NCBI GenBank assembly: GCA_025336685.1
Contig: GCA_025336685.1_4717.1
DNA from: Escherichia coli
GTDB lineage: Bacteria; Pseudomonadota; Gammaproteobacteria; Enterobacterales; Enterobacteriaceae
Length of the DNA stretch: 64,000 nucleotides
Reading direction: 5' to 3' (one strand)
Below the pieces are notes generated by a model. It saw only the letters and a program-made list of their open reading frames with translations. It was not told where the DNA came from and did not search any database. The translations under genes were made by a program, and so were the position numbers. This document shows, piece by piece, positions 8,470-58,848 of this stretch (position 1 is its first letter; each line of letters starts with the position of its first letter).

Positions 8470-8505
8470 CCTTCTCCCCAACCCGATGAGGGAAGGGGAG
8501 AAGGG
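8470..8505. terminator. GC-rich hairpin between convergent genes (CCTTCTCCCC...GGGGAGAAGG), member of the junction hairpin family
   Basis: Inverted repeat read directly; lies between stop of 5534-8440 (+) and stop of 8517-8798 (-); followed by CTATG. Confidence 0.5.
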
Positions 8506-8516
8506 CTATGCGCTAT

Positions 8517-8798
8517 TTAATTATTTCGAGAGGTTAACCACGATTCAATTGCGGTGAGGTTGCATTTCAGTTCACGCCAACTAGGGTGTGGTGGGATCAC
8601 AGCACCTTTGTCAATTACGGTTAGCTGAACCTGGTATTTCTGTTGCATACGTGCTACCGTATCGCTTACCGAGAGGAAAAGCTGGTAACGTTCGTACGCT
8701 GTCAGTTCGCGGTCCTGATAAACCGCGTAGGTGGCTAACGTAACTTCGCGTAAGTCCTTTGCGTCCACAGAGACGGTGATGAGTTTATATTGACTCAT
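8517..8798 (-). CDS. small hypothetical protein (93 aa)
   Basis: ATG at 8798 with AAGGAAA SD. Confidence 0.6.
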   Translation of the reverse strand: MSQYKLITVSVDAKDLREVTLATYAVYQDRELTAYERYQLFLSVSDTVARMQQKYQVQLTVIDKGAVIPPHPSWRELKCNLTAIESWLTSRNN

Positions 8799-8817
8799 AC
8801 GGTTTCCTTATCGACTA

Positions 8818-8840
8818 GGGTATTGCAAACTACAATACCC
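8818..8840 (-). promoter_or_regulatory. hairpin GGGTATTG-loop-CAATACCC immediately upstream of the SD of 8517-8798
   Basis: 8-bp inverted repeat between stop of 8861-11419 and start of 8517-8798; no U-tract. Confidence 0.3.
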
Positions 8841-8860
8841 GTCATCGGATGATAACTTAA

Positions 8861-11419
8861 TTACTGCTCTTCACGTTCCAACAGATACTCGGAAGCGGTA
8901 ATACCGTTTACCGTACGTACCGCTTTCAGACGAGTATCGTCACTCAGAATCACGGTAACAGACTGCAGACCTTTTACTTTGGTCTCGAAGGTCTTGAATA
9001 CCTGATCCAGCATACGAGCAATGCTTGGGTTGGTTGCAGCCGATGCGTGAGTGTAACCGTTCTGGTTCAGCTTCAGAATCTTGGCGTTGGTTGGTACACG
9101 AAGAACAACATGCGGACGCATTGCGAACACACTGTGGTTAAACCAGTAAGCATCGTTACTATCTTCGTCAGTGACGATGTCTGGATTAACACGCATGTCT
9201 TCGGTAGCCGCACCCGCCAAACGACGTTCGATTTCGTCAGCATCCAGAGAGCCGTCCTTCTCCAGTTCTGCACGATACTCACTCATGGCAACCAGATGAC
9301 GTTCACGATTCGCTGCAGATTTTTCGTGAGCGGCTTTCAGGTAGTCATGCATGTTGTACAGTTCTGCCATGGAAAGACGAATGTTCCACTGACCTTCGCC
9401 GTCACGATTGCAGTAGAGACACTTCAGCATGTTGACCCAGGTGTAGTAGCAATTGGAGAACTCATCTTCAATGAACTTCTGATCCATTTTAAGATCGTGA
9501 ATCAGCCAACCGGACAGTTCTCCGATATCATCAACGAAGCTAGAAATGGTGGTTTCAGAGAAGTTCTTCGGTACGATACGTTTGATCAGCTTGTTAACGT
9601 CTTTGGTCATGCTATCATTCAGGAAATGCCAGATACGCAGAGGAATGACATCACGATACTGTTGCATGATCTGACGATAAGCTTTGATATCGTCGCTACG
9701 ACCTTTATCAATAGACAACGCGTCCAGGAATTCATGGATAGCATCCAGCTCTTTGTCGGTATAGGTTCCCAGATAGGAATTGACCGTGGCAAGGAATGCT
9801 AATGCGTCGTTTTGGTTGACGTCGGTGTTGGTCTGCTGAATGATCGCTACTGCAGCTTTGGTTTCAGCATCCTCAACGCTTGACGCTGCGATTGCGTCGG
9901 TAACAGTAAACAGTTTCATTTCGCGCTGTTCGCCGACAACGATCGGTTCGCGTTGAACCGGTTTGTTAAGACTAACGCGAACAACTTCTGCTTGCGCGAT
10001 ACGATCCAGTTTTACCATTTCCTGCTCCGCCATACGACGAGCGGTCGGATCTGATTCAAGTTCGATGTATTCCACTTCTTCCTCCGTGAGGGATGTAATG
10101 TCAACAATGGTTTCATGAAGAATTCCGTTTTCGTCGATACGTGCTCGACGAGCGAAGTGTCTGAAGTCATACAACGTTGGCCAGCGACAATTAGGCGCAT
10201 AGTCTTTGGCCTTCAGACGCATCTGCATAAATTCTTCATGTTGAACAACACGACCGTAACGCTTAGCATCTTCGGTCGCATCAATTGGATTAACGGTCTT
10301 TGTTACCGTAGCAGAACGAGCCGTACGAATGGGTTCCGGTTTAGTCTGCACTGGTTCAGGTTGAACGGATTTCTGTTGTCCAGCCTTAACATGCCATTCG
10401 GGTTCTTCGTACCGTTCAGCAAATTGCTCGGCTGCTGCAAAGATATCATTGATACCACCAATATCTCCTTCTGGATTCGTCGAATATATCCGTGGTTGCG
10501 GTGCCTCGTAACGCGGCGCTGAGGTAGCAGATGCGTCGTTAACGACAGGATCGTCATCGCCAACATCATACAAACGGTTGAACGCACAATCCTTCGAATC
10601 GATGTACGATGGAGTTTGTGGTTGGATAACCGTCGGTCGAGGCTGTGCGCCGTATCCCGGCATTGTTGGAGCCATACCACGCATAACTGCTGGGTTAGGT
10701 TGGTATTGTGGTTGTGGGTAGGTTCCGCCATACGTGGGATATGCAGGCTGTTGCGGTTGACCGTACCCACCACCAACCATCGCATTTGCTTGCGGTCCAC
10801 GGTAAGTCATCCCCAGTTGCATCACCTGTTGCTTCAGACCGCGGGACTTCTGCGCTATTTGTGCTAGACTCCCACTTTTATTTAGCTGCGTGTACTTATT
10901 CGCGGCTTCCGGGTTAATGCGCGATAATTCAATCGCACGATAATACTCCGGGTATTGATTGGCTTCAAAGAGCCACGTTACAAGGTGATACAGCGCAACT
11001 GTGCTCACAGCAGCAGAGACGATCTGGTCGTTGGACGCATTCTGCGGCATCGGGTTGATGTAAGAGAATACGTTCCAGCAACAGTCTTCAACAAGCGATT
11101 CCATCATCATGTCGTTATTGGTGTAACGTGAGACGAACTCGGTTTGTATTTTATCCTGTTGGGCGAAGTCTTTCAGGACATTGAAGACAGCTTGACGGAT
11201 TTTGACGATCGTCGCTTCTTGGGTGATGAAGTTATAGTTCTGCTGATATGATGGTTGCTGGTACTGTGGTGGTTGATAGGTGTTATTCGGGTATGCGCTG
11301 TACTGCGGTTGCTGGTACTGTTGTTGGCGAACCTGTTCAGCCGCATAATTAATCGTACTCGCATAAGGGTTTTCGTTGTAGCCCATTTGCTGATACATGT
11401 TGTTACTGCCATTATACAT
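8861..11419 (-). CDS. large hypothetical protein with Q/Y/P/G-rich low-complexity regions (852 aa)
   Basis: ATG at 11419; N-terminal 60 aa and an internal segment are QQPQY/GYGQPQ-type low complexity. Confidence 0.85.
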   Translation of the reverse strand: MYNGSNNMYQQMGYNENPYASTINYAAEQVRQQQYQQPQYSAYPNNTYQPPQYQQPSYQQNYNFITQEATIVKIRQAVFNVLKDFAQQDKIQTEFVSRYTNNDMMMESLVEDCCWNVFSYINPMPQNASNDQIVSAAVSTVALYHLVTWLFEANQYPEYYRAIELSRINPEAANKYTQLNKSGSLAQIAQKSRGLKQQVMQLGMTYRGPQANAMVGGGYGQPQQPAYPTYGGTYPQPQYQPNPAVMRGMAPTMPGYGAQPRPTVIQPQTPSYIDSKDCAFNRLYDVGDDDPVVNDASATSAPRYEAPQPRIYSTNPEGDIGGINDIFAAAEQFAERYEEPEWHVKAGQQKSVQPEPVQTKPEPIRTARSATVTKTVNPIDATEDAKRYGRVVQHEEFMQMRLKAKDYAPNCRWPTLYDFRHFARRARIDENGILHETIVDITSLTEEEVEYIELESDPTARRMAEQEMVKLDRIAQAEVVRVSLNKPVQREPIVVGEQREMKLFTVTDAIAASSVEDAETKAAVAIIQQTNTDVNQNDALAFLATVNSYLGTYTDKELDAIHEFLDALSIDKGRSDDIKAYRQIMQQYRDVIPLRIWHFLNDSMTKDVNKLIKRIVPKNFSETTISSFVDDIGELSGWLIHDLKMDQKFIEDEFSNCYYTWVNMLKCLYCNRDGEGQWNIRLSMAELYNMHDYLKAAHEKSAANRERHLVAMSEYRAELEKDGSLDADEIERRLAGAATEDMRVNPDIVTDEDSNDAYWFNHSVFAMRPHVVLRVPTNAKILKLNQNGYTHASAATNPSIARMLDQVFKTFETKVKGLQSVTVILSDDTRLKAVRTVNGITASEYLLEREEQ

Positions 11420-11454
11420 TTCTTACGATCCTTTTTATTTTATTCGGTTATGTG

Positions 11455-13290: not shown

Positions 13291-14724
13291 TTACTTTTTC
13301 GATGACGCCTTCTCAAGAATCTTGAAAAAGGTCATACCTATACCGACAACAGCCGCGGTTATACTCGCAGCGGCTTTCCAAACATCGACGTTACGTTGAC
13401 GTCGTGCTTCTTCCGCTTCACGTTGTCTTTTTGCCTCTTCATCACGTCGACGTATCTCAGCAGCAAACTCGTCATGCTTACGTTTGGCTTCTTCGTCTCG
13501 ACGACGAAGTTCAGCGACGAATTCTTCATGTTTGCGTTTAGCCTCATCATCACGACGTTTTAAATCAGCTTGATAATCTTCGTGTATTTGTCTACGTAGA
13601 TCATCTTGACGTTTCATTTCGGCTTGGTGTTGTTCCATCCTACGTTTTTGTTCGTCTTTAAGCTGATCGAGTTCGGCTTTATGTTGTTCGTCGCGCAGCT
13701 TTGCGTCGGCGCGATGCGCTTCATGCATCTGTGCGATAACTGCCTTGTGTTCATCCGCCATACGTCGCATTTCAGCCATCACCCCTTTAAGGGTTTCTTC
13801 TGACGACTTACGTTCGTAGCTGCGTTGGTCGAAATCATTTTTGTAGGCTTCTTTTTGGATGGGATCGCGCCAATGCAATGCCGATTCACGCGTCGGAAAA
13901 ACATTGTACTTCCACATCTCTTTTTCCAAATCTTCGACCGGTACGAAGATGGAGTCATTATTCCCGAAGGTAACCAACATACCTGGCGCGCCTGCTCCAT
14001 TCGTTGGTTTTATTTCGAACGCTTTCCCCAGCACGTTAACCCATAGGCTATACGGATTATGAAAGTCGGGTGGCGTCCAGTGGATAGTGAGTTGCGTTCC
14101 GAGAATCCGGAAACCCTCTGTCTTTCCTGTTAAACTACGCGCACATGTTGCGATGTAGGGGTGATCAATCCCTTTCGTAACATGGTCTGCGCTTTTGTAT
14201 TCTCCTTTAACTTTTACGATTGCCACGTTGATTTGCGCGACATAAATAGGTTGATTAAAGTTCAACGTGTTGAGGTCAATTTGACATATCTCGTCCAGCG
14301 TATCGTACCAGTCTTGCTGGTCTAATAGACGCGGTATTTTCTCTGTGTTAACGATGCGACGGATATGCGGTTTCCTTATCGCGTAACCTGTACCATTTTT
14401 AACACGGAGTATATCCCGACGTCTACCCGCGTAGACGAAGTTTCTGAATGCACCATTCGCATTAGATACGTCATGGCTGTCAACTATTACAGGACTACGA
14501 AATTTTGAACGTCGTACGATCCTGAATGTATTACTGTCCTCAACTCTACCAGGAATGTACTGGAACATATTGTCGGAGGTGATAACCAACACGGTATGGC
14601 CGGATTCATTAATACATGCCCACCCTAATTCCAGGTCATACAACGGTTCAGCATAACCGTCAATGCGATATGCGTACCATCCCCACGGTTCGAACGCGGT
14701 ATCACATATTGGCATGGAGGGCAT
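13291..14724 (-). CDS. hypothetical protein with C-terminal charged coiled-coil repeats and a terminal hydrophobic helix (477 aa)
   Basis: ATG at 14724 with GGAGGTGA SD; three RRRDEEAKRKHxEFxAE repeats then WKAAASITAAVVGIGMTFFKIL. Confidence 0.85.
   Translation of the reverse strand: MPSMPICDTAFEPWGWYAYRIDGYAEPLYDLELGWACINESGHTVLVITSDNMFQYIPGRVEDSNTFRIVRRSKFRSPVIVDSHDVSNANGAFRNFVYAGRRRDILRVKNGTGYAIRKPHIRRIVNTEKIPRLLDQQDWYDTLDEICQIDLNTLNFNQPIYVAQINVAIVKVKGEYKSADHVTKGIDHPYIATCARSLTGKTEGFRILGTQLTIHWTPPDFHNPYSLWVNVLGKAFEIKPTNGAGAPGMLVTFGNNDSIFVPVEDLEKEMWKYNVFPTRESALHWRDPIQKEAYKNDFDQRSYERKSSEETLKGVMAEMRRMADEHKAVIAQMHEAHRADAKLRDEQHKAELDQLKDEQKRRMEQHQAEMKRQDDLRRQIHEDYQADLKRRDDEAKRKHEEFVAELRRRDEEAKRKHDEFAAEIRRRDEEAKRQREAEEARRQRNVDVWKAAASITAAVVGIGMTFFKILEKASSKK
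13407..13572 (-). repeat. imperfect tandem DNA repeats (about 45-48 bp unit) encoding the charged peptide repeats of 13291-14724
   Basis: Repeated cgtcgacg...ttcttcatg...gcgttt units visible; coordinates approximate. Confidence 0.4.
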
Positions 14725-14894: not shown

Positions 14895-14932
14895 TCAAAT
14901 TTTTTCTATTCGCAACGATAAACGGCATAAAT

Positions 14933-14960
14933 CTCCCCCAACCCTTACGGGCTGAGGGAG
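14933..14960 (-). terminator. imperfect GC-rich hairpin (CTCCC..CCC-TTAC-GGG..GGGAG) flanked by CATA/TATG, downstream of the capsid-candidate gene
   Basis: Inverted repeat read directly; same architecture as the other junction hairpins. Confidence 0.4.
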
Positions 14961-15057
14961 GCTGACTTATGTATCACGGTGCCGGATGAATGTCCGCAAT
15001 GAAACCATCCGCAACGTTGTCGTCAAGAATATCATCCAACGAAGCAGCTACGGTAGT

Positions 15058-17429: not shown

Positions 17430-17834
17430 TCACAAACGACGCAGGCGATAATGGATGGAACGATTGGTGCAATATGAACGGAACAGCGGCAATTGCGCAA
17501 CTTCCGCAAGACTCATATTAATTCGCAGGTGTTCAATAACGGCGCTGTAGTTATCAGCAATACGATCGCTCAATAACTCTTCTGCCAATAAAGGAAGACA
17601 ATCGACAACAATCGCGATCACATCCTCATTAACATAACGCACCCGAACACTCAACGGACGTTTGTCTGGGTTGTAAGTTGGATCCGCCAAACGACGTTCA
17701 ATATCACGCGGATAGCTCGTCAGTAAATGGTAATAACCATTGTCATAACGATTGATGTACTCACACAGCACACCAACGTTCTTCTCTGGCGGTAAACCTG
17801 TTTCGTCATAGTGGATACGCAAACATACCACCAA
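17430..17834 (-). CDS. hypothetical protein, C-terminal ORF of a possibly frameshifted gene (134 aa)
   Basis: ORF-track start is TTG; overlaps 17806-18051 in another frame; no in-frame ATG near the 5' end. Confidence 0.45.
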   Translation of the reverse strand: MVVCLRIHYDETGLPPEKNVGVLCEYINRYDNGYYHLLTSYPRDIERRLADPTYNPDKRPLSVRVRYVNEDVIAIVVDCLPLLAEELLSDRIADNYSAVIEHLRINMSLAEVAQLPLFRSYCTNRSIHYRLRRL

Positions 17835-18051
17835 GCAGGTTGTTAAGATGGACCGCAGGGTTCGCTTGTTCGTGTTCTTTCGTGATGAAGAAAGGCACGT
17901 TCTGGGCCGCGAAATAAAAACCTACATCATTGGGCGATAGTATGCCGAAAAGACTTTTAGGATCCAATAACACCTGTAAGTCATCACGCGCATTTCGAAT
18001 AATCGCGTGTTCTACCCAATTCGGAACGACGAGATATCGGAGTTCCTTCAT
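17806..18051 (-). CDS. hypothetical protein, N-terminal ORF of a possibly frameshifted gene (81 aa)
   Basis: ATG start; 3' end overlaps the 5' end of 17430-17834. Confidence 0.45.
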   Translation of the reverse strand: MKELRYLVVPNWVEHAIIRNARDDLQVLLDPKSLFGILSPNDVGFYFAAQNVPFFITKEHEQANPAVHLNNLLGGMFAYPL

Positions 18052-19726: not shown

Positions 19727-19758
19727 CCCTCCTCCAACCCGTAAGGGAAGGAGGAGGG
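19727..19758. terminator. junction hairpin CCCTCCTCC-AA-CCC-GTAA-GGG-AA-GGAGGAGGG between convergent genes
   Basis: Perfect 9+3 bp stem; A9 run 12 nt upstream gives a U-tract for the minus-strand transcript; followed by TTATG. Confidence 0.55.
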
Positions 19759-19773
19759 TTATGACCGCGGTGG

Positions 19774-21215: not shown

Positions 21216-22118
21216 TTAGAAATTATTGCCGAACCGGTTATGGTTGTATGGTTGGTAGTGTCCGTAATTGCCTGGGAAGCCACCATACGTCGTAGGCTCC
21301 GGTTTAGGGACTTCCATAATCGGATTTTTAGAATTGATCGCCATCACGTAAAGGGTTACGGGTGATGCTGCGTGGCCCATTTCGACGACCACACGGCGGA
21401 TATAATCAATGTATGCTGTTATTGCAGGCGTCAGTTTGTCTCCTTCGGTAGTTATAACGGTGCCGTCGGAAAGAATCTCACGAACCGCGCACCATTTACC
21501 AAGATGAACTCCTTGCTGCGGCTTTACTCCAGCAGAGATAGAGAGATAGGTATCGTACGTCGTTTGATGATACGGATGACTATAAATAGATTCCGCTTTG
21601 TTTTCGTCTTTCCCTAAGTACTCGCCTTGCTTAGGAGTATGAGTTGATATCATATCGGTATTTTCCACGAATGTCTTTCCTTCGAGTTGTTTGATTAATC
21701 GTTTAACCGATTCAGTTATGTTGTTGTGTCTAGGGATCAGCTTTAAGTAAACAGTCGGTAACTGGATTGTTGACCCATCACTACTGCGCGGATAAGATAA
21801 TTTGTAAAACTGTTCAAAAATCCGCCGTAACGCTTCGTTGTCTGAAGTTGCCAATTTAACATAGGAGCATCGTCCTTTAGCATTGGGATTGTAGAGAAGG
21901 AGAATAACGTCTTCGTCAGTACGTGTATCCTGAGGATGACAAGCGATGTAGTGAATGGGAATAGCCGTATCTTTTTCGTCTCCCGGTTTGATAGACAATG
22001 AAAAATCATGAGTTTCTTTTAACGTTCGTAACGTGCAGGATGCGTCGTCACTATTAAGTAAGAACACACCGAAACGCACGCTTTCGTATGCTGACGGGTC
22101 GCGTATTAATAAGGTCAT
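21216..22118 (-). CDS. hypothetical protein, tandem paralog family with HP.H.TYD.YL motif (about 300 aa)
   Basis: ORF-track start 22196 is TTG; ATG at 22118 has AGGAG SD at 7 nt; shares HPYHQTTYDTYLSISAGV with 22204-22977. Confidence 0.8.
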   Translation of the reverse strand: MTLLIRDPSAYESVRFGVFLLNSDDASCTLRTLKETHDFSLSIKPGDEKDTAIPIHYIACHPQDTRTDEDVILLLYNPNAKGRCSYVKLATSDNEALRRIFEQFYKLSYPRSSDGSTIQLPTVYLKLIPRHNNITESVKRLIKQLEGKTFVENTDMISTHTPKQGEYLGKDENKAESIYSHPYHQTTYDTYLSISAGVKPQQGVHLGKWCAVREILSDGTVITTEGDKLTPAITAYIDYIRRVVVEMGHAASPVTLYVMAINSKNPIMEVPKPEPTTYGGFPGNYGHYQPYNHNRFGNNF

Positions 22119-22203
22119 GTTCGGCTCCTTGATTACGATAAGGATGATTGCGGTTTTGTGGTGCTGGTAGGGCCCTAAACAAAGGAACCCTACCAATATT
22201 AGG

Positions 22204-22977
22204 TTATTCAGGATCGGCGTAGAAATGGTGAGGATAGCCGGAGTACGATCCTGCGTTACCGGCTATGGATTCTTTCTGGGAATCGACGACGAGCGCATAG
22301 AACTGTCGGGAATTTGTTAGCGTTGAGAAATAAGCGGAAAGGACTTTTTCATTCAACGCATCGCAAGGTAGACAGGTGCGACCGCAAAACGTAACGATAC
22401 GGCCGTCAGGATAGATCTCACGAATCATTCTCCACTCACCGATATCCACTGGTGATGGTGCTGCTACACCACCTGTTATCGTTAAGTAACGATCGTACGT
22501 GGTATGGCATTCAGGATGAATATAGATCGGCTTGTTCGTTTCGACAGGTTCCGAAGTGTCTCGACGACTAAGGAGTTCAACGACTTCAAGATAAATCGTT
22601 GGTAGATCGCGGAGAATACCGGTGTTACGACGTTTCTTTGTGATTCGCGGACGAATCTCGTTAAGAGCGTATTCGAGCTTACGTTCAGCTTCGTACGCAT
22701 CGAGTTTTATTAGGTGGCCCGGTTCATCGGAATGATCCTGAGTTATGTAAACGAAATACGTGTTGTCTTTTGCAGCGCGAAAGATTCGAGCGACCTTAAA
22801 TGTTTCTACAGTGCGATAACCAAGGCGCGATTGATTTTCCACAGGAGAAAATATCCAATGTCGTCCTTCGTCCGCCCCAACAATTTCGTTGAAACTATCC
22901 GTTTGTTCTGGGACCTGGTAGTCAGCCATTAATGTATCAAGAGCGTCATCGGCCAGTTTGGTGTAAATATCTGTCAT
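22204..22977 (-). CDS. hypothetical protein, tandem paralog of 21216-22118 (257 aa)
   Basis: ATG at 22977 with GAGGA SD; HPECHTTYDRYLTITGGV motif. Confidence 0.8.
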   Translation of the reverse strand: MTDIYTKLADDALDTLMADYQVPEQTDSFNEIVGADEGRHWIFSPVENQSRLGYRTVETFKVARIFRAAKDNTYFVYITQDHSDEPGHLIKLDAYEAERKLEYALNEIRPRITKKRRNTGILRDLPTIYLEVVELLSRRDTSEPVETNKPIYIHPECHTTYDRYLTITGGVAAPSPVDIGEWRMIREIYPDGRIVTFCGRTCLPCDALNEKVLSAYFSTLTNSRQFYALVVDSQKESIAGNAGSYSGYPHHFYADPE

Positions 22978-23032: not shown

Positions 23033-23054
23033 TCACCTAGGTAATATAGTCGCG
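23033..23054 (-). promoter_or_regulatory. conserved motif TCACCTAGGTAATATAGTCGCG (minus strand CTATATTACCTAGGTGA), putative phage early-type promoter
   Basis: Exact TATATTAC on the minus strand about 60 nt upstream of the 22204-22977 start; motif recurs at 14875, 58090, 58255. Confidence 0.4.
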
Positions 23055-23091: not shown

Positions 23092-23123
23092 CCCTCTCCC
23101 TTCCCTTACGGGTTGGGAGAGGG
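23092..23123 (-). terminator. junction hairpin CCCTCTCCC-TT-CCC-TTAC-GGG-TTG-GGAGAGGG
   Basis: Perfect inverted repeat immediately after the stop of 23128-24495; inverse orientation of the 37018 copy. Confidence 0.5.
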
Positions 23124-28344: not shown

Positions 28345-28395
28345 CGCAGATTCCTGTTTGAAAGATAAGATATCACATGATGGTCGACAGCATAA

Positions 28396-28417
28396 AGCCC
28401 ACCCCGAAGGGCGGGCT
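28396..28417 (-). terminator. intrinsic-terminator-like hairpin (GCCCACCC-CGAA-GGGCGGGC) followed on the minus strand by UUUAUGCUG
   Basis: Stem-loop directly after stop of 28433-31798; U-rich tract after stem on the coding strand. Confidence 0.55.
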
Positions 28418-28432
28418 GTTTATGCGTACGGG

Positions 28433-34205: not shown

Positions 34206-34311
34206 TTGGGACTCCTACGTAGGGAAATCTTGGCGGGTGATCATGTCCGCCATTTACCTTCTGAACCGTTGATTCAGAAGTCAAAAGATAACCGGATACC
34301 GGCGTCATAAA

Positions 34312-34343
34312 CCTTCCTCCTTCCCTTACGGGTTGGAGGAAGG
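34312..34343 (-). terminator. junction hairpin CCTTCCTCC-TT-CCC-TTAC-GGG-TTG-GGAGGAAGG
   Basis: Perfect inverted repeat after the stop of 34354-35643; flanked by CATAAA and TTATG. Confidence 0.5.
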
Positions 34344-36969: not shown

Positions 36970-37017
36970 GTGTTGTCTCCAGTAATGATTCAAAAGATAA
37001 ACCTGAGCGGCATAGAA

Positions 37018-37049
37018 CCCTCTCCCAACCCGTAAGGGAAGGGAGAGGG
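37018..37049 (-). terminator. junction hairpin CCCTCTCCC-AA-CCC-GTAA-GGG-AA-GGGAGAGGG
   Basis: Perfect inverted repeat after the stop of the codon-optimised 441-aa gene; flanked by CATAGAA and AATATG. Confidence 0.55.
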
Positions 37050-37071
37050 AATATGTCAGTTTATTAACTGA

Positions 37072-40121: not shown

Positions 40122-40133
40122 GACTTTCACGTG

Positions 40134-41265: not shown

Positions 41266-42259
41266 CAGTCCGATTCCGATTAACCGCGATCATGCCGGTA
41301 TTACCTTCTTCACACGACCTAATTTACATCTTACCGACGCGAACTTAAAACGAGATCGACGTTTGTGGTCGTTACGTACGGATAACCCTAACAGTATTCA
41401 GGCTGTTGTCCGTGACTACTTGGACCCTGTGGGTGCCAGAAAGCGGAACCATCGAGGACGTGCCATCGTCGATGAGCGCAATCCATTCATAAGTATACTG
41501 ACGGACAACCTGACGGATATCAGCGGTTTCAATGACATGGAAATGCAGGTCTATCAGGGTAAACCGGGATTACGCCAAGAAACCGTTGTGATGGCTGACG
41601 GTTCAGTGGATATGTTTCAACCCTATAACCTGAACGCGACGTTCAAGAACATCATGGGTAACCCCATCATGTTCCTTCATTATATTTGGTTGATTTACAT
41701 CGCTGGTGTGCATAATGGTGAACTGACGCCAAGCCCTCAGGCCATCATCGACAATGAAATGGATTACTGGACAAGATGTTATCGTATCATCCTGGATCCG
41801 ACTGGGATGTATGTTCGTTATATCTTCGCACCGACCGCGATGTTTCCTGTCGGGTTACCGACTGGTAATATGGCTAACTACAGCATCGATAAACCCTTCA
41901 CGCAAGATAACGAACGTATCACTATTCCATACCAAGCGGTTGGTAACAACGCATTCGATGAAATTCTGAAGGATGAATTCAATCGACTTGTCCTGATGTT
42001 CTATTACGGTGAGAACGATACCCGTACGTTCCTTGAAGATGAGGAGTTGGTACCTATTTCACCCTACGAGCGTCGAATCATGTCGTATCGTGTCGATATG
42101 TATCCATTTATTCATCCGTTGACCTCAGAGCTTCTTTGGTTCGTACCCGCTGATGCTTACAACGAATTCTATCTGGATCTTGAGCCATCGGCGTTACCAC
42201 CGGATACGTTCAGTCGCGATCTTGTCCGTACCACCATTCCGCAAAATTACGAGGGATAA
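41141..42259 (+). CDS. hypothetical protein (372 aa)
   Basis: ATG at 41141 with GGAGG 9 nt upstream; first gene of a plus-strand cluster. Confidence 0.7.
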   Translation: MRCYSLIQIGQWRGRIFVPVSVKGHTDSIARRYRNVSPIPGNSPIPINRDHAGITFFTRPNLHLTDANLKRDRRLWSLRTDNPNSIQAVVRDYLDPVGARKRNHRGRAIVDERNPFISILTDNLTDISGFNDMEMQVYQGKPGLRQETVVMADGSVDMFQPYNLNATFKNIMGNPIMFLHYIWLIYIAGVHNGELTPSPQAIIDNEMDYWTRCYRIILDPTGMYVRYIFAPTAMFPVGLPTGNMANYSIDKPFTQDNERITIPYQAVGNNAFDEILKDEFNRLVLMFYYGENDTRTFLEDEELVPISPYERRIMSYRVDMYPFIHPLTSELLWFVPADAYNEFYLDLEPSALPPDTFSRDLVRTTIPQNYEG

Positions 42260-42262: not shown

Positions 42263-43378
42263 ATGAGCGTAACCAACAAAGATCTTGCTGAACAGCTCAA
42301 TCGCTATATGCTTTCACCCATTGAAATGCAGGCTGTTGCAAGCGATATGATCCGTTTGGCTTCCGATGGTGAGTTAACCCTGGTTGACCCCAGCTGTCCG
42401 TTTGTTTATCTGCTGGAGGTTGCAACGGCGACGGCTGCGAACCAGAACGCGCGGGATGAATCCCGTGTTCGCGAACTGTATCCGAAACTTGCAACCAACT
42501 GGAGCCAGCTCTATCGTTGGATGTATGACGAGTCGTACGTCGGACGTTTCGCAATGCCGGGTAAAACGGAAATCATTTATTCGTTAGGGTATCAGGAAAT
42601 CCTCGATCGTGCTGTAGAGATTCCAAACACCGCCGCATCCGATGATTTAAGCCGTTCTTACAGCCGTAAGTTAGTGATACCACGTACGACGGTGTTTACG
42701 GTAGCCGGAATGGATTTCGGGCTGCATTATCCCATCGAAATCCAAGTGCAGGCGCACGACCAGATACGCGTTGTTTATAACACTGATAACATCAGCCCGC
42801 TGCAAACCTTGGAGAGTAACCAAGTTGAGTATGGTGTTGTTCGTGTAAAAGCGGGTAAAGTGTTGGTGATGCGTATCCCACTGTTCCAGTTTAAAACGCT
42901 GGTAAAAGATGTGCCGTTTAACAGCGTTCACGGGATGAACAGCAGCATTACCTTCGAAGATCAGTTTTACCATTGTCGTGCGTACATGTCGTCGGATAAC
43001 GATACCTGGACGGAGATAGCGACAACCCACAGCCAGCAGATCTACGATCCGTTAACACCGACCATCGCGTTACAAGTAGAAGGGAACAAACTTAACTGGC
43101 GTGTTCCTGAAATTTATTTGTCTCAAGGTACGATGGATAAAAGCACCATTCGACTCGAGGTGTTGACGACGAAAGGGAAAATCAGCGTCGACCCGTCTGA
43201 TTACGACGTGACTGATTGGAAAGATAATTACATCGATCTGTCACCAAAAGCCGAACAGAAATACAGTGCGCCGCTAAGTGCGTTCAACATTAAAGGGATT
43301 TATAGTGAAGGGGCGTTGTCGGGTGGACGATCTGCGTTAACATTCGAGGAACAACGTGAACGCGTTATGGCGAAGTGA
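42263..43378 (+). CDS. hypothetical protein (371 aa)
   Basis: ATG with GAGGGA SD; 3-nt gap to upstream gene. Confidence 0.85.
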   Translation: MSVTNKDLAEQLNRYMLSPIEMQAVASDMIRLASDGELTLVDPSCPFVYLLEVATATAANQNARDESRVRELYPKLATNWSQLYRWMYDESYVGRFAMPGKTEIIYSLGYQEILDRAVEIPNTAASDDLSRSYSRKLVIPRTTVFTVAGMDFGLHYPIEIQVQAHDQIRVVYNTDNISPLQTLESNQVEYGVVRVKAGKVLVMRIPLFQFKTLVKDVPFNSVHGMNSSITFEDQFYHCRAYMSSDNDTWTEIATTHSQQIYDPLTPTIALQVEGNKLNWRVPEIYLSQGTMDKSTIRLEVLTTKGKISVDPSDYDVTDWKDNYIDLSPKAEQKYSAPLSAFNIKGIYSEGALSGGRSALTFEEQRERVMAK

Positions 43379-44712
43379 ACAAAACCGGAGTACCGATCAC
43401 GGGAACACAGGTAGAGCTGGTGCTTCAAGATGCGGGTTATGGGATGGTAACCACTATCGACAACGTAACCAATCGTTCGTTCCTGGCAACCCGAGATTTA
43501 CCGCAATTGAGCGACAGCGTGCCGCAAGCCGGTTCGTTGATGGGGTCTTTCTATACTTCAGCCGCAGCGTTGGTGAAAAGTAAGTTTGTCGCCGATAACG
43601 GCGATCGTATCACGATTAAACCGGACTGTCTGTATCGCGACAGTAACGGAAGTATCGCACTGTTGTCGGACGATGAAATTGACCGTATTAATGCAGGTAA
43701 CTCTGATGCGAAGTTGAACGCGGTAAACAACGCCATGTTGTTTTACAGCCCGTTTCATTACGTGTTGGATGCGACAAGCGATTTCGACATTCATGCTTAT
43801 TACCTGGATGCTCCTAAGATCGGCACACAAGCATTCCTCGACGCGAACGAGACAATCCCGTTAACCGCTATGGTGACCGGATACCGTCTGGATCGTATCG
43901 CTGAAGGATATCGTCTAAGCCTCATTGTAGAAGGTAACGACGCATGGAAGGCGCTCGACGATAAAAACGTGCACGTGCAGCTGGGGTTCAATCCGCGGGG
44001 TGAGGGTGATTATGCGACGATGTTAGCATCACCGACAACCGATGAACAAGGTCGTCGTTTGTTCACCTTCGATATCACCACGAATTATGATTTCACGCGA
44101 ATCCTGGCCGATGATTCCACGGCGTATGAACCATATATCGCATTGACCTCTTTCTCGATGTATGAATCGACACCGCGGGATTACTGGGCATCACTGCAGC
44201 AGTATTTGGAAATCTTCCATGTGGTGACGGATTATGCGCCGGAAGATGTCGACGGTATTTTACACAGTGCTTCCGATAATTACCTGGTTAAGAAACTTAC
44301 GCTTCAAAATGGGTATTGTTTCTACCGTGAACGTCTCACCGCAACCTTTGGTTATGATCTGGATGGTCTTTGGATGCGCTCTCGTACGGTAGCCTCGGAG
44401 ATTACGTATAAACGTTACACCGAGAACATTCCGTGGGTGTATGAAGAAGATATTCCAGCGACGGATGAGACCGGTTCGGTTATCATTGAACAAGGTGATG
44501 ACGGTACGCTGTCAGTTAAATACCTGCATCGTAAAGGTGACCCGAAATTAAACAGTGATGGAAGCCAAGCCTATCGTTATCTGAAAGGCGACATCATGAA
44601 AGATAATTACGGTAATCCGATCCTGTCGATGAACGTGAAGTTCTGCGTAGCCTGGACATGTTCTTTATTGATGCGTCGTATCTGCTTTAGCGAACGATAC
44701 GGACGTGATTGA
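43375..44712 (+). CDS. hypothetical protein (445 aa)
   Basis: GTG start overlapping upstream stop (GTGA); start uncertain. Confidence 0.8.
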   Translation: MNKTGVPITGTQVELVLQDAGYGMVTTIDNVTNRSFLATRDLPQLSDSVPQAGSLMGSFYTSAAALVKSKFVADNGDRITIKPDCLYRDSNGSIALLSDDEIDRINAGNSDAKLNAVNNAMLFYSPFHYVLDATSDFDIHAYYLDAPKIGTQAFLDANETIPLTAMVTGYRLDRIAEGYRLSLIVEGNDAWKALDDKNVHVQLGFNPRGEGDYATMLASPTTDEQGRRLFTFDITTNYDFTRILADDSTAYEPYIALTSFSMYESTPRDYWASLQQYLEIFHVVTDYAPEDVDGILHSASDNYLVKKLTLQNGYCFYRERLTATFGYDLDGLWMRSRTVASEITYKRYTENIPWVYEEDIPATDETGSVIIEQGDDGTLSVKYLHRKGDPKLNSDGSQAYRYLKGDIMKDNYGNPILSMNVKFCVAWTCSLLMRRICFSERYGRD

Positions 44713-45257
44713 GTATCGTAACACGATTCCTACGCAGCTTATCGGAGTGGATCAAGAACGATATCATCACATTCAGGAATTTCTGTTATGAGGAAACAGA
44801 GATTTCACTGTATCCTAAACAATCGTTGGGGTATGTGGATGTTATTGTCGAAAACGGATTGGAAACAACGCTTCCTGCCGCTCTATCGTTCAACGTGACG
44901 CTTTACTTACCAGCTAAGCAATACGCGGATTTGGATCTCCGTCAAGTCCTTCAAGCGATGGTATCGAAAGTCATCAACGAATGCTTAACGTCCCGTACGG
45001 TGGCTAAAGCAGAAATGATCGCGATGATTCGTGAGGAGGGTGGTGACGACATCCTTAACGTTGAAATCGATGATTTTGGACCAGGTAAGAACCTCAGTGT
45101 TTATACTGCGAAGAACGATGGTGTTCGCTGCGCGGTGAAGAAAGAGCTTTATGTGAAAGCGGATGGTATCTTGTCCGTACGTGAAGCGATCGATGTAAGT
45201 TTTGTGAAACATGCACAAAGCAACAGTTCGGCATTAGCGCAAGGCCTTCGTGTCTAA
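44709..45257 (+). CDS. hypothetical protein (182 aa)
   Basis: TTG start overlapping upstream stop (TTGA); no in-frame ATG until aa 88; start uncertain. Confidence 0.65.
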   Translation: MSIVTRFLRSLSEWIKNDIITFRNFCYEETEISLYPKQSLGYVDVIVENGLETTLPAALSFNVTLYLPAKQYADLDLRQVLQAMVSKVINECLTSRTVAKAEMIAMIREEGGDDILNVEIDDFGPGKNLSVYTAKNDGVRCAVKKELYVKADGILSVREAIDVSFVKHAQSNSSALAQGLRV

Positions 45258-45278
45258 AACAAAATAGCATGAGCATAA

Positions 45279-45310
45279 CCCTCCTCCAACCCGTAAGGGA
45301 AGGAGGAGGG
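45279..45310. terminator. junction hairpin CCCTCCTCC-AA-CCC-GTAA-GGG-AA-GGAGGAGGG between convergent genes
   Basis: Identical to the 19727 copy; flanked by CATAA and AATATG. Confidence 0.55.
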
Positions 45311-45319
45311 AATATGTTG

Positions 45320-48127: not shown

Positions 48128-48158
48128 CCTAGGGGAAGGCTGAAAACCTTCCCCTAGG
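48128..48158 (-). terminator. hairpin with perfect 12-bp stem CCTAGGGGAAGG / CCTTCCCCTAGG
   Basis: Between stop of 48172-50967 and start of 45320-48112; divergent member of the hairpin family. Confidence 0.45.
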
Positions 48159-54292: not shown

Positions 54293-54712
54293 ATGGGATG
54301 CACTGCCGACGACATGACCCAGGAAGAAGATAAGTGGGTTATCTCACGAACCGGACATATCGTCACATTACCGTGCGATCTCATGGCAGACAACGGCATT
54401 CATCTCTTCTGGGATATGCCTAATCTGAGAAGTTATATCCGTCTATTCGTTGCAGACCTCGACATAAGCAGTTCATATCCAAATGGGCAGATCCTGCTCA
54501 ATCTATCCAGAGCCTGTGTTTTCCGTGAGCTATCACGCATTGAGGGCGTCTCTGACTATCAATTCAGGAAGTTAGGTATCAACTTTATTACCGGAGGTAA
54601 AACGAACGCTGTAGACTTCTGTAGAATCGTTTATAAAGCACCATCGATGTTTGAACTCTTAGAGCATTTCGATGCGACGCGTCCGAAAGAGGAAGCGCGG
54701 ACCATCGAATGA
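54293..54712 (+). CDS. family-B DNA polymerase fragment carrying motif A (139 aa), separated from the exonuclease ORF by frame changes
   Basis: VADLDISSSYPNG matches pol B motif A (DxxSLYPS); no motif B or C before the stop at 54712. Confidence 0.55.
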   Translation: MGCTADDMTQEEDKWVISRTGHIVTLPCDLMADNGIHLFWDMPNLRSYIRLFVADLDISSSYPNGQILLNLSRACVFRELSRIEGVSDYQFRKLGINFITGGKTNAVDFCRIVYKAPSMFELLEHFDATRPKEEARTIE

Positions 54713-54777: not shown

Positions 54778-54809
54778 CCCCTCCCCCTGGCGGAAGCCGG
54801 AGGGAGGGG
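54778..54809. terminator. GC-rich hairpin with GGAA loop followed by TTTTATGTGTTTTTAATT; bidirectional terminator
   Basis: Between stop of the polymerase fragment and stop of 54828-55277; T-rich tracts on both sides. Confidence 0.55.
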
Positions 54810-54827
54810 TGGAGGTTTTATGTGTTT

Positions 54828-55277
54828 TTAATTATTGTTGATGGGGTTATCGTCCGGCTTATATTCGATGCCGTAGGCGACGTAACGGTCTGTCGTATGG
54901 ACGACAAGCGAGATGGGGAAATCATAATGCGTGGTTTTGTCTCGGACGAGCTGAGTAAAGAGATCCATATAACGTATTAAGTCTTCACTGGTGTAATCAG
55001 AAGGGAAGAAGACGTCGATGGTTATTGAATCTTCATAGAGGCGTATAACCAACTTATCCAGAAGGTCGGCATATTGGTTAGCCGGGGTGACGTCCAGCTC
55101 ACAGATATCACGATCTCCTTCGTCTCGTGATACCCACATCATGGTATCCTGTAATGAGGTTTCAAGGATCTCGAAAATGCATTTTGCTGTAAGTTTTAGT
55201 TTATTTGTTACGTCATGGTTAGGTGAATAATGGTCACGGATGTTTTTCACTGCGTCTTTGATAGAGAAAGTCATCAT
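54828..55277 (-). CDS. small hypothetical protein, paralog of 55288-55797 (149 aa)
   Basis: ATG with AGGAG SD; shares ILETSLQD / LLESSLQD segment with next gene. Confidence 0.75.
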   Translation of the reverse strand: MMTFSIKDAVKNIRDHYSPNHDVTNKLKLTAKCIFEILETSLQDTMMWVSRDEGDRDICELDVTPANQYADLLDKLVIRLYEDSITIDVFFPSDYTSEDLIRYMDLFTQLVRDKTTHYDFPISLVVHTTDRYVAYGIEYKPDDNPINNN

Positions 55278-55287
55278 TGATGCTCCT

Positions 55288-55797
55288 TCAAATGAAATTA
55301 ATACGTGCGGCTGTCGAAACGAGTTCGCTTGTAAAGCAATGCTTACCGTCGGTATTTACCGTGTGAGTAAGTTTACAAGCCTTAGTGGTTGGGTTAGCGC
55401 CAATGACCAGGACGGTCGTCATATCGAACAGTTCCACACGTTGGAGAAATGCCGTATCGGCTACCTTCTGTAAACCGGTTGCTTCAAAATCGATGTGGTC
55501 GTTAAGCGATACCAATTGGATTTCAATACGTTCTTTGAAAAGTTTAAACGTTACTGAAAACCGATGAGGTTCGGTATTAAACCATAAAGGTCCGCGTTGG
55601 AAGTGCTGATATGCTTCATTCGTGTTGTTCTCGAAAACCCAGTAGTCGTGGACAAGAGAAGCGTCTTGTAACGAGGATTCCAGGAGATCAAACGTCTTAT
55701 TTATTGCTTTCTCAAGCATAGGTGCTAGTGAACCCGGGTATCCAGCAAATGCTGTTTCGGCAATCGATTTTATTGATACGATGTTATTCTGGTTCAT
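55288..55797 (-). CDS. small hypothetical protein, paralog of 54828-55277 (about 169 aa)
   Basis: ORF-track start is TTG; ATG at 55797 has AAGGAA SD at 8 nt. Confidence 0.75.
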   Translation of the reverse strand: MNQNNIVSIKSIAETAFAGYPGSLAPMLEKAINKTFDLLESSLQDASLVHDYWVFENNTNEAYQHFQRGPLWFNTEPHRFSVTFKLFKERIEIQLVSLNDHIDFEATGLQKVADTAFLQRVELFDMTTVLVIGANPTTKACKLTHTVNTDGKHCFTSELVSTAARINFI

Positions 55798-55801: not shown

Positions 55802-56281
55802 TTATTCCTTGTTGGATTCTTCAATGTGCTTGGTGTCGTAGGACAGATGCTGAATTAATTTTCGAGGTTCGATGAATATACGACATGTGATAAACACATC
55901 AGGATCGTATTGTTCCACGCAACGTCCGAAGGCTCGTTTTGCGGACTGACGCATCAAGGCTAATTCCTGATCGTTCATCTCATCATCAAATTCGATGTGT
56001 ATCGTGATTTTATCGGGAAATAAATAGATAGAGTAATCGCTACCGATATCACCGTCGTCAAAACGATAATCGTTGTGGTAATGGTGGAGTTTACCTTCGT
56101 GTATCGTCTGGTACCACCCGACGACACTATCAAGACCCATACCCAGGCGTCCGAATGCTTGGTTAATAATATCCTCGACGACGGATGCGGGCGTGGGACC
56201 ATGGAATAAACGATCTAAGCGCTTTTTCATTGATTTGTCGGTTTTCACATTCATTGTTTCTTTTCCTGTTATAATCGGCAT
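55802..56281 (-). CDS. small hypothetical protein (159 aa)
   Basis: ATG at 56281 lies 4 nt after the hairpin whose 3' arm (GGGGAAGGG) would be its SD; alternative ATG 27 nt downstream. Confidence 0.7.
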   Translation of the reverse strand: MPIITGKETMNVKTDKSMKKRLDRLFHGPTPASVVEDIINQAFGRLGMGLDSVVGWYQTIHEGKLHHYHNDYRFDDGDIGSDYSIYLFPDKITIHIEFDDEMNDQELALMRQSAKRAFGRCVEQYDPDVFITCRIFIEPRKLIQHLSYDTKHIEESNKE

Positions 56282-56284
56282 ATA

Positions 56285-56317
56285 GCCCTTCCCCGGCCTT
56301 GATGGCTAGGGAAGGGT
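56285..56317 (-). terminator. junction hairpin (CCCTTCCCC...GGGGAAGGG) abutting the start of 55802-56281
   Basis: Inverted repeat; flanked by CATATAG and GTATG; may occlude the RBS of the downstream gene. Confidence 0.4.
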
Positions 56318-56474
56318 ATGTTTACGTGTAATTACTCTGACGTAAGCGTCTTTATGCGTGTCGAAAAGTCTGTTGACGTTAGATTTGAATGAGTATTCTG
56401 CCGTCATTATTCTACCTTAATGGTTTAACCGACACGTGTCCCCACTTAACAAGGGACACGATATCGTTGATTAA

Positions 56475-56969: not shown

Positions 56970-57012
56970 ATTCACCTCTTTCTTAATCTAAATGTTAGTT
57001 GGGGTGGGATGC

Positions 57013-57668: not shown

Positions 57669-57686
57669 GGTGGGGCGAACCCCACC
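57669..57686 (-). terminator. rho-independent terminator: GGTGGGG-CGAA-CCCCACC followed by U5 on the minus strand
   Basis: Perfect 7-bp GC stem with tetraloop, flanked by A5 on the plus strand; sits 25 nt after the stop of 57712-58134. Confidence 0.7.
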
Positions 57687-57711
57687 AAAACGTCAGACAC
57701 ACGCAGGAAAA

Positions 57712-58134: not shown

Positions 58135-58201
58135 CTTGACATCCTCTTATATTGGATTGATTGCAGTTATCTTAAATAGGCGATAAGATATCTTGCTCTT
58201 A

Positions 58202-58274
58202 TCACCTAGGTTGCGTTTTGTTAATAACAAAACGCATCGCCTTAGTGACCTATGTCACTAAGGTAATATAGCCG
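58202..58274 (-). promoter_or_regulatory. composite regulatory region: TCACCTAGGT half-motif, perfect 25-bp palindrome, 10-bp hairpin, then full GTCACTAAGGTAATATAGCCG motif
   Basis: Palindrome TGCGTTTTGTTAA-T-AACAAAACGCA at 58212-58236 and inverted repeat CCTTAGTGAC/GTCACTAAGG at 58240-58263, both read directly; TATATTAC on the minus strand. Confidence 0.4.
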
Positions 58275-58314
58275 TGAAATAGACTGCGTTAACAAGAAAT
58301 AAAACAGCATAAAA

Positions 58315-58358
58315 CCTCCTCCCCCATCCTACAAGAGGACGGTGGGAAGAGGGAGAGA
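58315..58358 (-). terminator. imperfect GC-rich junction hairpin after the stop of 58361-58762
   Basis: CCTCCTCCCCC...GGTGGGAAGAGGGAG with mismatches; flanked by CATAAAA; weakest family member. Confidence 0.3.
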
Positions 58359-58360
58359 GA

Positions 58361-58762
58361 TTAAATGTCGTGGACGGCATTGCCGTTTAACCAGCAATAC
58401 AGCTTAACGCGACACGGATACCGCTTCGTTGCAGCAGCCATTTCACCGCGTAAACGCTGGTAGATTTCATCCTGGTGTTCACGTTCGATGGGGTAATCAG
58501 CCCAGCATTCGATCATGACGTCACCATTAGTCAGAATCGTCGTACGCATCCTGTCCTGGACTCGACGATCTTTCCCAGCATTAGGGAAATACATCCCTTC
58601 AGTACGAATAAGGTCACCACAGGGCATGACTAACCATTCGTTCGTTTTGCCGGTATTCTTATAATCCGTTACAGCTTGCATTGCGGTGTCAACGCTAAAA
58701 GAAACATAATTCCAAACGGGGGTCCAACGATAGATTGCGGGTTGTTCAAGTGTTTCGTTCAT
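58361..58762 (-). CDS. small hypothetical protein (133 aa)
   Basis: ATG at 58762. Confidence 0.75.
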   Translation of the reverse strand: MNETLEQPAIYRWTPVWNYVSFSVDTAMQAVTDYKNTGKTNEWLVMPCGDLIRTEGMYFPNAGKDRRVQDRMRTTILTNGDVMIECWADYPIEREHQDEIYQRLRGEMAAATKRYPCRVKLYCWLNGNAVHDI

Positions 58763-58816
58763 GAGGTGCTTTTCCTATTTTTTATTTTCTGCACAGGATA
58801 AATTCAACGGCATAAA

Positions 58817-58848
58817 GCCCTTCCCTGCCCTTATATGGGGCGGGAAGA
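58817..58848 (-). terminator. junction hairpin (CCCTTCCCTGCCC-TTATAT-GGGGCGGGAAG) flanked by CATAAAG and TTTATG
   Basis: Imperfect inverted repeat; same flank pattern as the 28396 and 56285 copies. Confidence 0.45.

Follow-up and report, generated by a model that had tools for sequence, protein, structure and literature searches.

The window analysed here, a stretch of 64,000 nt from contig GCA_025336685.1_4717.1 of an assembly deposited as Escherichia coli (GCA_025336685.1), carries thirteen GC-rich hairpins between genes, which are numbered e1 to e13 in the order of their positions (8470, 14933, 19727, 23092, 28396, 34312, 37018, 45279, 48128, 54778, 56285, 58315 and 58817). Most probably these elements are factor-independent, hairpin-dependent terminators for the multisubunit RNA polymerases of a phage, in the form that the clade of phage Goslar has of the terminator of phages phiKZ and 201phi2-1. 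The terminator class itself is already known, since it was published and mapped in phiKZ; the elements in the window are its Goslar-clade members and not a new system. The assignment is based on anatomy, distribution, orientation, conservation and covariation of the elements, while the position of the RNA 3' end is taken from phiKZ only.

By its sequence the window is related, with 93-95% nucleotide identity, to vB_EcoM_Goslar (Goslarvirus), an Escherichia phage of the nucleus-forming, phiKZ-like jumbo type (chimallivirus). A 12-kb piece of it is 93.3% identical to Goslar at the nucleotide level, and with this piece as query no other record of the phage collection gave a nucleotide-level match. 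Aligned over its full length, the window corresponds to Goslar 28372-92441, in five blocks with 90-95% identity and a few indels. The capsid protein is 98.5% identical to that of Goslar, followed by Xanthomonas phage Xoo-sp14 with 34% and phiKZ with about 26%. Genes for RNA polymerase beta/beta'-like subunits are present in the Goslar record, and one of them lies within the span of the window (Goslar_00078, corresponding to 59642-60943; Goslar annotation, taken as given). As far as this annotation goes, the genome is thus one of a chimallivirus encoding phiKZ-like multisubunit RNA polymerases. Two further Goslar-like genomes from IMG/VR (182,865 bp and 237,533 bp, together referred to as genomes A and B) were included in the comparison.

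All thirteen hairpins that an earlier note on this DNA had described were found where it placed them, and all are intergenic. Folded with their flanks, they have energies between about -23 and -41 kcal/mol. When the plus strand is folded in sliding 50-nt pieces, 11 loci of the window reach -25 kcal/mol or lower, compared with 0-4 in six first-order Markov simulations of the window, and the family makes up most of the strongest folds. Nine of these 11 loci are intergenic, although non-coding DNA amounts to only about 7% of the sequence (a fraction measured in Goslar). Genome-wide, 29 of the 33 Goslar hairpins at or below -25 kcal/mol fall within the 7% non-coding portion, as judged with a set of 247 annotated genes, every one of which was checked as an intact open reading frame (ORF). 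The hairpins are therefore confirmed as real and non-random. Two strong hairpins of about -25 kcal/mol within coding regions of the window (5621-5670 and 13689-13738) are without the pyrimidine and purine arms of the family.

Four elements are located at convergent (stop-stop) junctions and nine at tandem junctions of minus-strand genes, so that all four convergent junctions of the window are occupied, none of the five divergent ones, and nine of about 27 tandem ones with a gap of at least 25 nt. The stem begins mostly 4-29 nt after the upstream stop codon, with exceptions of 65, 96, 129 and 158 nt. Terminators of the phiKZ type, too, lie between genes past stop codons and have bidirectional copies where genes converge. 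Conservation in related phages, which the earlier note had named as a check, is complete in Goslar: every element has an ortholog at the same junction (13/13). The Goslar positions, in the order of e1 to e13, are 36846, 43310, 48107, 49776, 55080, 61009, 63715, 71990, 74839, 83251, 84366, 86751 and 87254.

The main class of hairpins has the layout CCCTCYCC(C) / AA / CCC-GTAA-GGG / AA / (G)GGRGAGGG. It is two-tiered, with a 9-bp CCCTCYCC stem, a 2x2 internal loop and an inner CCC-NNNN-GGG. Among twelve 32-nt copies of this class from the window and Goslar (10 distinct sequences), 12 pairs are formed in every copy and none is broken, and double-sided changes occur among the paralogs at five of the 12. 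The stems are perfectly Watson-Crick paired and contain no G-U pairs. The sole pair exchange is C-G to U-A; consequently, the pyrimidine stays on the 5' arm. The hairpin structure is under selection.

Since a MAFFT alignment of all thirteen elements with their flanks was too ragged, a covariance model was built from the 32-nt two-tier class only. With E<0.01 it recovers seven of the thirteen (8470, 14933, 19727, 23092, 34312, 37018 and 45279); 54778, 56285 and 58315 are marginal, and at 28396, 48128 and 58817 this model of the two-tier class found no match. In Goslar it matches about 18 copies. The deposited linear Goslar record begins inside a copy of the element (segment L002, 1-25), and the copy at its opposite end is complete (segment L006, 37246-37277). 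A single family with one shared stem, as initially described, hence holds for a core class of seven under one model, and the rest is heterogeneous. Because the model recovers only part of the thirteen, the family is a core class plus other hairpins, which have polarity and tail in common but not sequence. The 5' arm is pyrimidine-rich in 10-11 of the 13, mixed in e9, and part of a shorter GCCCACCC stem in e5; overall, the arms are CCYCCCC-like and GGGRRGG-like as in the phiKZ-type terminator. Among 47 perfect hairpins of Goslar with a TATG tail, 39 have a 5' arm with at least 75% pyrimidine and one has the reverse polarity. The two orientations in which the element had been thought to occur are apparent only. 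They concern the unpaired central part, because the stem is a perfect palindrome and reads alike on both strands. A scan of the window for perfect stems (at least 9 bp, loop 3-12) detected only e9, since the main class is two-tiered, and sliding-window folding was used instead. Rfam 15 yielded no match at its gathering threshold across the whole window.

A second feature of the family is a tail containing TATG. The earlier note saw nearly every copy bracketed by CATA and TATG, which goes too far: the motif stands no more than 14 nt from the stem on both flanks in 7/13, on one flank in 4/13 and on neither in 2/13 (23092 and 48128). The CAT next to 48128 does not belong to the element but serves as start codon for the downstream gene and has a GGAG ribosome-binding site before it. 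On the flank of the transcribed strand TATG is found 0-9 nt from the stem in 11 of the 13, e4 and e9 being the exceptions; this agrees with the TTAT(G/T)YYGT that in the phiKZ-type terminator directly follows the stem on the transcribed strand. The full TATGCYGT is present in e2, e5, e12 and e13. In Goslar the consensus is T(1-4)-TATG-C-Y-G-T on the transcription-downstream side, 1-3 nt after the stem, and the spacer is most often 2 nt long. Among the tetramers in the 10 nt 3' of 168 perfect, strand-specific Goslar hairpins, TATG ranks first (45 cases, compared with three for its reverse complement CATA). At tandem junctions of Goslar, hairpins with a pyrimidine arm have TATG on 18 of 21 co-directional and on 4 of 21 anti-directional flanks, the background being 4.6% per 12-nt intergenic window. 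It occurs on 19 of 30 flanks at convergent junctions and on none of 10 at divergent junctions, where all intergenic hairpins were counted. The flanks are thus oriented with transcription, and this is the main correction to the initial description.

TATGCYGT has 40 copies in Goslar, of which 19 are intergenic (2.8 expected), and 25 of 27 intergenic TATGCYG directly follow a hairpin, unrelated stems included. Stand-alone TATG in Goslar tandem spacers outside the hairpin flanks was neither enriched nor oriented (36 co-directional and 29 anti-directional), but a 4-nt motif is too short to exclude promoters in this way. That TATG and CATA are mere start codons was considered and dismissed for most copies, since convergent junctions have no ORF after them and the starts mapped from Goslar are 25-202 nt away. 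Only for the CAT beside e9 does this explanation hold.

The earlier note had referred to terminator hairpins in phiKZ-like phages, and the elements indeed agree in stem polarity, spacing and tail with the published motif 5'-BCCYCCCCHWWDGGGRRGGBYTTATKYYGT-3', which was derived from 61 termination regions of phiKZ identified by cappable-seq on the ONT platform (ONT-cappable-seq; Putzeys et al. 2024, PMC10914365). Where phiKZ genes converge, the same study reported six bidirectional terminator regions (PMC10914365). In 201phi2-1 the commonest motif (motif A) among 132 termination sites resembles the phiKZ terminator, and some 201phi2-1 terminators were active in a terminator-trap assay (PMC11512511). 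In 90 kb of phiKZ that we scanned, the layout is CATAA, a stem with pyrimidine-rich 5' arm, 1-3 nt and TATG-Y-Y-G-T, as in the window. The mode of the spacer between stem and TATG is 2 nt in both Goslar and phiKZ, and the position tables agree. Start and end positions of phiKZ transcripts were taken from the published tables (bioRxiv 10.1101/2023.10.13.562163, supplement), starts being compared over 60-118 kb and ends over 60-150 kb. At 13 TATG-tailed terminators the RNA 3' ends lie between -3 and +3 nt from the G (median +1), at an ONT-cappable-seq resolution of about 2 nt. They are located on the tail, 5-8 nt beyond the stem.

With the terminators of phiKZ and 201phi2-1 the elements share the pyrimidine 5' arm, the purine 3' arm, the 1-3 nt spacer, TTATG-YY-GT and the upstream CATAA, furthermore the intergenic location after stop codons, the bidirectional use between convergent genes and a copy after the major capsid gene. 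In contrast to phiKZ, the stems in the window are longer (9-12 bp versus 6-9 bp), those of the main class have two tiers (2x2 internal loop, inner CCC-GTAA-GGG clamp), and TTAT is followed in Goslar almost always by G and then mostly by C. The phiKZ terminators are known from mapped transcript ends, and those of the window are predicted from sequence. A hairpin with a TATG-YY-GT tail after the major capsid gene is found in the window, Goslar, phiKZ, Erwinia phage RAY and Xanthomonas phage Xoo-sp14. In RAY it reads AGAGGAGGAGC-ATT-GCTCCTCCTCT, then TATGCCGTG (segment L009, about 7830-7870); in Xoo-sp14 the hairpin is followed by TATGCCGTC (segment L008, about 8130-8175). Both have a purine-rich 5' arm and nevertheless keep the TATGCCGT tail; hence, the tail is more widely conserved than the stem polarity.

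Presumably, the nascent RNA past the stop codon folds into a GC-rich hairpin of 9-12 bp, whose 5' arm consists of pyrimidines and whose 3' arm consists of purines. The tail U(1-4)-UAUG-C-Y-G-U would begin 1-3 nt further on, and the transcript would end at the G or within about 3 nt of it. For the phage of the window, RNA release 5-8 nt past the stem may thus be brought about by the hairpin together with a pause at UAU|G. At this putative pause point, TAT|G, the RNA would have a pyrimidine 3' end with G as the incoming nucleotide and the G-rich 3' arm about 10 nt upstream. In combining a pyrimidine/G junction with an upstream G-rich arm (distance about 10 nt), the site is similar to the consensus pause known for multisubunit polymerases. 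A convergent copy with a tail on each strand would stop transcription in both directions, since its stem is perfectly palindromic. The individual elements are as follows.

e1, 8461..8510: hairpin 8470-8504 (CCTTCTCCCC AA CCC GATGA GGG AA GGGGAGAAGG) at a convergent junction; TATG on the plus strand at 8507-8510 and on the minus strand at 8461-8464; covariance-model E=3e-6; identical in Goslar.
e2, 14922..14971, minus strand: hairpin 14934-14961, 96 nt past the stop codon of the major capsid gene; tail TATGCCGT at 14922-14929 (minus), TATG also at 14968-14971 (plus); covariance-model E=1e-3; its counterpart is phiKZ terminator T057, likewise after the capsid gene.
e3, 19727..19763: canonical two-tier hairpin 19727-19758 at a convergent junction; plus-strand tail TTATG (19760-19763), minus-strand flank with a run of nine T in place of TATG; covariance-model match.
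e4, 23092..23123, minus strand: canonical hairpin 4 nt past the stop codon, with the degenerate tail TTCTATAC; covariance-model match; downstream an early-promoter-like GACTATATTACCTAGGTGA (23041-23048, minus); in the Goslar ortholog the central part is inverted and the tail is CTTATGCTGT.
e5, 28387..28424, minus strand: short hairpin 28396-28418 (GCCCACCC CGAA GGGCGGGC) without covariance-model match; tail TATGCTGT at 28387-28394 (minus), TATG at 28421-28424 (plus); in the Goslar record a 'putative transcriptional terminator' (55080-55101).
e6, 34306..34343, minus strand: canonical hairpin 34312-34343, 10 nt past the stop codon; tail TTTATGACG with TATG at 34306-34309 (minus); covariance-model match; central part reversed with respect to the orthologs of Goslar, A and B.
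e7, 37011..37055, minus strand: canonical hairpin 37018-37049; tail TTCTATGCCG with TATG at 37011-37014 (minus), TATG also at 37052-37055 (plus); next start codon 42 nt downstream; covariance-model match.
e8, 45274..45316: canonical hairpin 45279-45310 at a convergent junction; TATG at 45274-45277 and 45313-45316, one per strand.
e9, 48128..48158, minus strand: 12-bp hairpin of unlike sequence and mixed polarity (CCTAGGGGAAGG/CCTTCCCCTAGG) without TATG tail; directly downstream the next gene's GGAG ribosome-binding site and its ATG (48112).
e10, 54778..54822: hairpin 54778-54809 (CCCCTCCCCC TGGC GGAA GCCG GAGGGAGGGG) at a convergent junction; TATG on the plus strand 9 nt past the stem (54819-54822), minus-strand flank without TATG; covariance-model E=0.23, marginal.
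e11, 56279..56320, minus strand: hairpin 56286-56316; tail CTATATGCCG with TATG at 56279-56282, TATG also at 56317-56320 (plus); the ATG of the tail need not be a start codon, since the downstream gene starts at 56254 (mapped from Goslar).
e12, 58304..58354, minus strand: long imperfect hairpin 58315-58354; tail TATGCTGT at 58304-58311; downstream an early-promoter-like CACGGCTATATTACCTTAGTGA (58263-58270, minus).
e13, 58807..58855, minus strand: hairpin 58818-58848; tail TATGCCGT at 58807-58814 (minus), TATG at 58852-58855 (plus); identical in Goslar.

TATG is also the core of the phiKZ late promoter, 5'-TATG-3' with G as +1, which GP123, a beta-like subunit, reads on the non-template strand (PMC4666361, PMC12809450). 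The earlier note was correct in naming a TATG-containing late promoter, the G being the start site (PMC4666361). From this it had suggested combined cassettes. Each junction would then be a stop-start module, the hairpin ending the upstream transcript and the G of TATG serving the non-virion polymerase as start of the next one. Besides the shared core, such a dual role is favored by several tandem spacers of the window, in which the tail is the only TATG before the next start (25-202 nt away), and by the phiKZ start P049, which lies at a second TATG 6 nt past a terminator stem. The latter is the only such coincidence among 20 tails in phiKZ 60-118 kb; the first TATG of the tail is a mapped start in none of the 20, and at P054 the start uses a different TATG, 21 nt further downstream. 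The ends mapped at the phiKZ tail are 3' ends. Furthermore, the tail has about the same frequency at convergent junctions, which offer it no co-oriented gene and where a promoter would drive antisense RNA. The proven phiKZ promoter P119L (TTGCTATGTAGAC) and the P83/P84 promoters lie in divergent spacers and have no hairpin. Published late-promoter logos show nothing conserved past TATG (PMC4666361), in contrast to the tails with their G-rich stem upstream and YYGT downstream. Promoter and tail thus share the tetranucleotide, and the start base of late transcripts is the end base of terminated ones; yet proven promoters stand alone, without hairpin and YYGT, and hairpin tails are almost never mapped starts in phiKZ.

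Early promoters of phiKZ (TATATTAC) often follow a terminator tail at a distance of about 30 nt (P017, P028 and P034). The same layout is found at e4 and e12, each of which is trailed, some 35-45 nt past the hairpin, by a separate motif of the early-promoter type; this also speaks against the tail as a promoter. The conserved motif, TTCACGGC-TATATTAC-YTAnGTGA, resembles the phiKZ early (virion polymerase) promoter. Eight of its 10 Goslar copies are intergenic; copies were noted at 2567, 113797, 142800, 160791, 166069, 172978, 201944 and 226695 (all minus), and the intergenic ones of the window are at 23041-23048 and 58263-58270 (both minus). Past e12, a leader downstream of this motif contains two adjacent AT-rich/GC hairpins (58200-58262, minus). 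The terminator half of the suggested cassette is supported by the motif match and by a junction distribution as terminators show it. Taking the convergent tails, the hairpin-less promoters, the phiKZ 3' ends and starts and the early promoters together, the promoter half is not supported as a general rule. We consider the cassette improbable as an explanation of the family; by analogy with phiKZ, a promoter role at individual junctions of the window phage would be at best occasional. The same non-template-strand pocket might nevertheless serve promoter core and terminator tail. A more far-reaching variant, in our view rather unlikely, is that the non-virion RNA polymerase uses TATG for both transcript ends: its beta-like subunit would read the non-template TATG, a sequence-specific pause and release 1-3 nt past the hairpin would replace the U-tract, and transcription would restart at the same or the next TATG at some junctions.

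Several observations weigh against termination as the function of the elements. In Goslar, at 49773, 117667 and 166925 (minus), the next gene is annotated as starting at the ATG of the tail, and the purine arm takes the place of a ribosome-binding site; this implies either read-through or mis-annotation. Elements e4 (23092) and e9 (48128) lack the TATG tail, and at the orthologous junction SPN3US and PCH45 have an ordinary hairpin with a T-run, so that not every member of the family possesses the tail. A generic scan for bacterial terminators listed none of the 13 elements. It misses them because the tail is not a T-run, and the sites it does report are not above shuffles in two of three segments. 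Likewise, the T-run of bacterial intrinsic terminators (at least five T in eight positions, starting 0-2 nt past the stem) is absent from the tails. Published RNA sequencing (RNA-seq) of Goslar is gene-level, and the RNA ends available for comparison are those of phiKZ; neither the enhanced crosslinking and immunoprecipitation (eCLIP) paper on ChmC nor the Goslar RNA-seq paper provided a usable motif or end mapping. Finally, 3' ends determined by ONT sequencing cannot distinguish true termination from stalling of an exonuclease at a hairpin.

The elements nevertheless have in common with bacterial intrinsic terminators a GC-rich hairpin, a U-containing stretch and RNA release a few nucleotides past the stem, as well as bidirectional use when an A-rich upstream flank mirrors the tail. 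They differ in that the tail is a specific sequence rather than a U-tract and that the polymerases are the phage's own; phiKZ infection is resistant to rifampicin (PMC4666361). The sole canonical hairpin with a T-run in an intergenic position of the window is located at 57669-57686 (minus; GGTGGGGTTCGCCCCACC TTTTT).

The ambiguity of 3' ends, inseparable by end mapping alone, also favors a role in RNA stability or processing. Polymerases would then read through, and the hairpins would block 3'-to-5' exonucleases or mark cleavage sites, setting differential stability within polycistronic late transcripts as repetitive extragenic palindromic (REP) sequences do in E. coli. The hairpins are very stable, are found after highly expressed genes such as the capsid gene, and have tails without a long U-run. 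A protective hairpin, however, needs no conserved, strand-oriented tail at a fixed distance of 1-3 nt, and the phiKZ 3' ends lie 5-8 nt past the stem at the tail and not at the stem base. In addition, the occupation of all convergent junctions fits a need to stop polymerases, and some 201phi2-1 terminators were active in the trap assay (PMC11512511). This explanation is therefore very improbable, and termination is preferred.

A comparison of the four genomes (window, Goslar, genomes A and B) revealed inversion as a mode of divergence. In orthologous hairpins the internal loop, inner stem and loop can be exactly reverse-complemented while the outer stem is unchanged. At least six independent central inversions have occurred in the 13 loci of these near-identical genomes: one each in e3 (genome A), e4 (window versus Goslar), e6 (window) and e7 (genome B), and two in e9 (window versus Goslar, A versus B). 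The stem of e9 additionally shows two compensatory pair differences between the two genome pairs, and the loop of e7 varies between GTAA, GTGA and GTCA. Inversions and loop variation with intact pairing indicate that orientation and exact sequence of the central module are unconstrained and that the pairing is constrained. Short inversions of hairpin loops in organelle genomes are alike in that the segment between inverted arms flips and the arms remain unchanged.

Such inversions are DNA-level events, and together with the identical 32-nt core in several copies and the perfect Watson-Crick stems without G-U pairs they could point to palindromes acting as DNA, i.e. a mobile repeat similar to REP sequences or miniature inverted-repeat transposable elements (MITEs), or a signal for recombination, replication or packaging. 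However, e1-e3 and e5-e9 occupy the same junction in every one of the four genomes where the flanks align; for e4, which both the window and Goslar possess, only these two genomes gave an alignment, and e10-e13 could not be aligned in A and B. Among the alignable loci there is no insertion polymorphism as expected of REP- or MITE-like repeats. As no element is absent wherever flanks align, mobility is argued against, and the mobile-element explanation was rejected. Moreover, the tail follows the direction of transcription and not the genome strand, the same tail is attached to hairpins with unrelated stems, and element class and tail are kept in phages whose capsid proteins are only about 26-34% identical. 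With REP sequences and other small palindromic repeats the elements share dispersed intergenic palindromes in near-identical copies; they differ from REP repeats in showing no evidence of mobility, in their strand-oriented functional tail and in being tied to stop codons and convergent junctions. A function of the palindromes at the DNA level thus has a next to negligible probability, and terminators remain the preferred interpretation.

Apart from the elements, the window differs from Goslar in several places. Single Goslar ORFs are broken into two or three at 337-1221, 17430-18051, 38989-41021, 41056-42259 and 42263-45257; Goslar_00063 (997 aa) corresponds to three ORFs. These split ORFs could be frameshifts, pseudogenes or indel errors of the assembly. 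Indel sites are located at 21249-22972, 54456-54476, 54818-55779 and 56316-56339. A 1.7-kb insertion of the window adjoins e4 and carries two ORFs, and the segment 54818-55779 near e10 is a block replaced relative to Goslar. No Pfam match was obtained for the two inserted ORFs beside e4 or for the two ORFs of the diverged block near e10. A 430-bp segment of Goslar is missing from the window, as is the gene for a NUMOD1/HNH homing endonuclease that lies beside the DNA polymerase gene in Goslar.

For Goslar-type phages the elements can be used directly to map where transcription units are bounded. Among the E. coli models for nucleus-forming phages Goslar is a main one, with only 18 terminators listed in its GenBank record. 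Some of the elements already figure there as putative terminators; e5 (Goslar 55080-55101), the only one within the span of the window that was compared with the 18, is one of them. The repeated central inversions among near-identical genomes are a small and clean case of palindrome-driven micro-inversion in a phage. In the literature searched, no paper discussing a link between the terminator tail and the late-promoter core was found. With the shared TATG, phiKZ transcripts end on the base where late transcripts start, and this bears on the question of what gives the non-virion polymerase its specificity with a promoter consensus of four bases.

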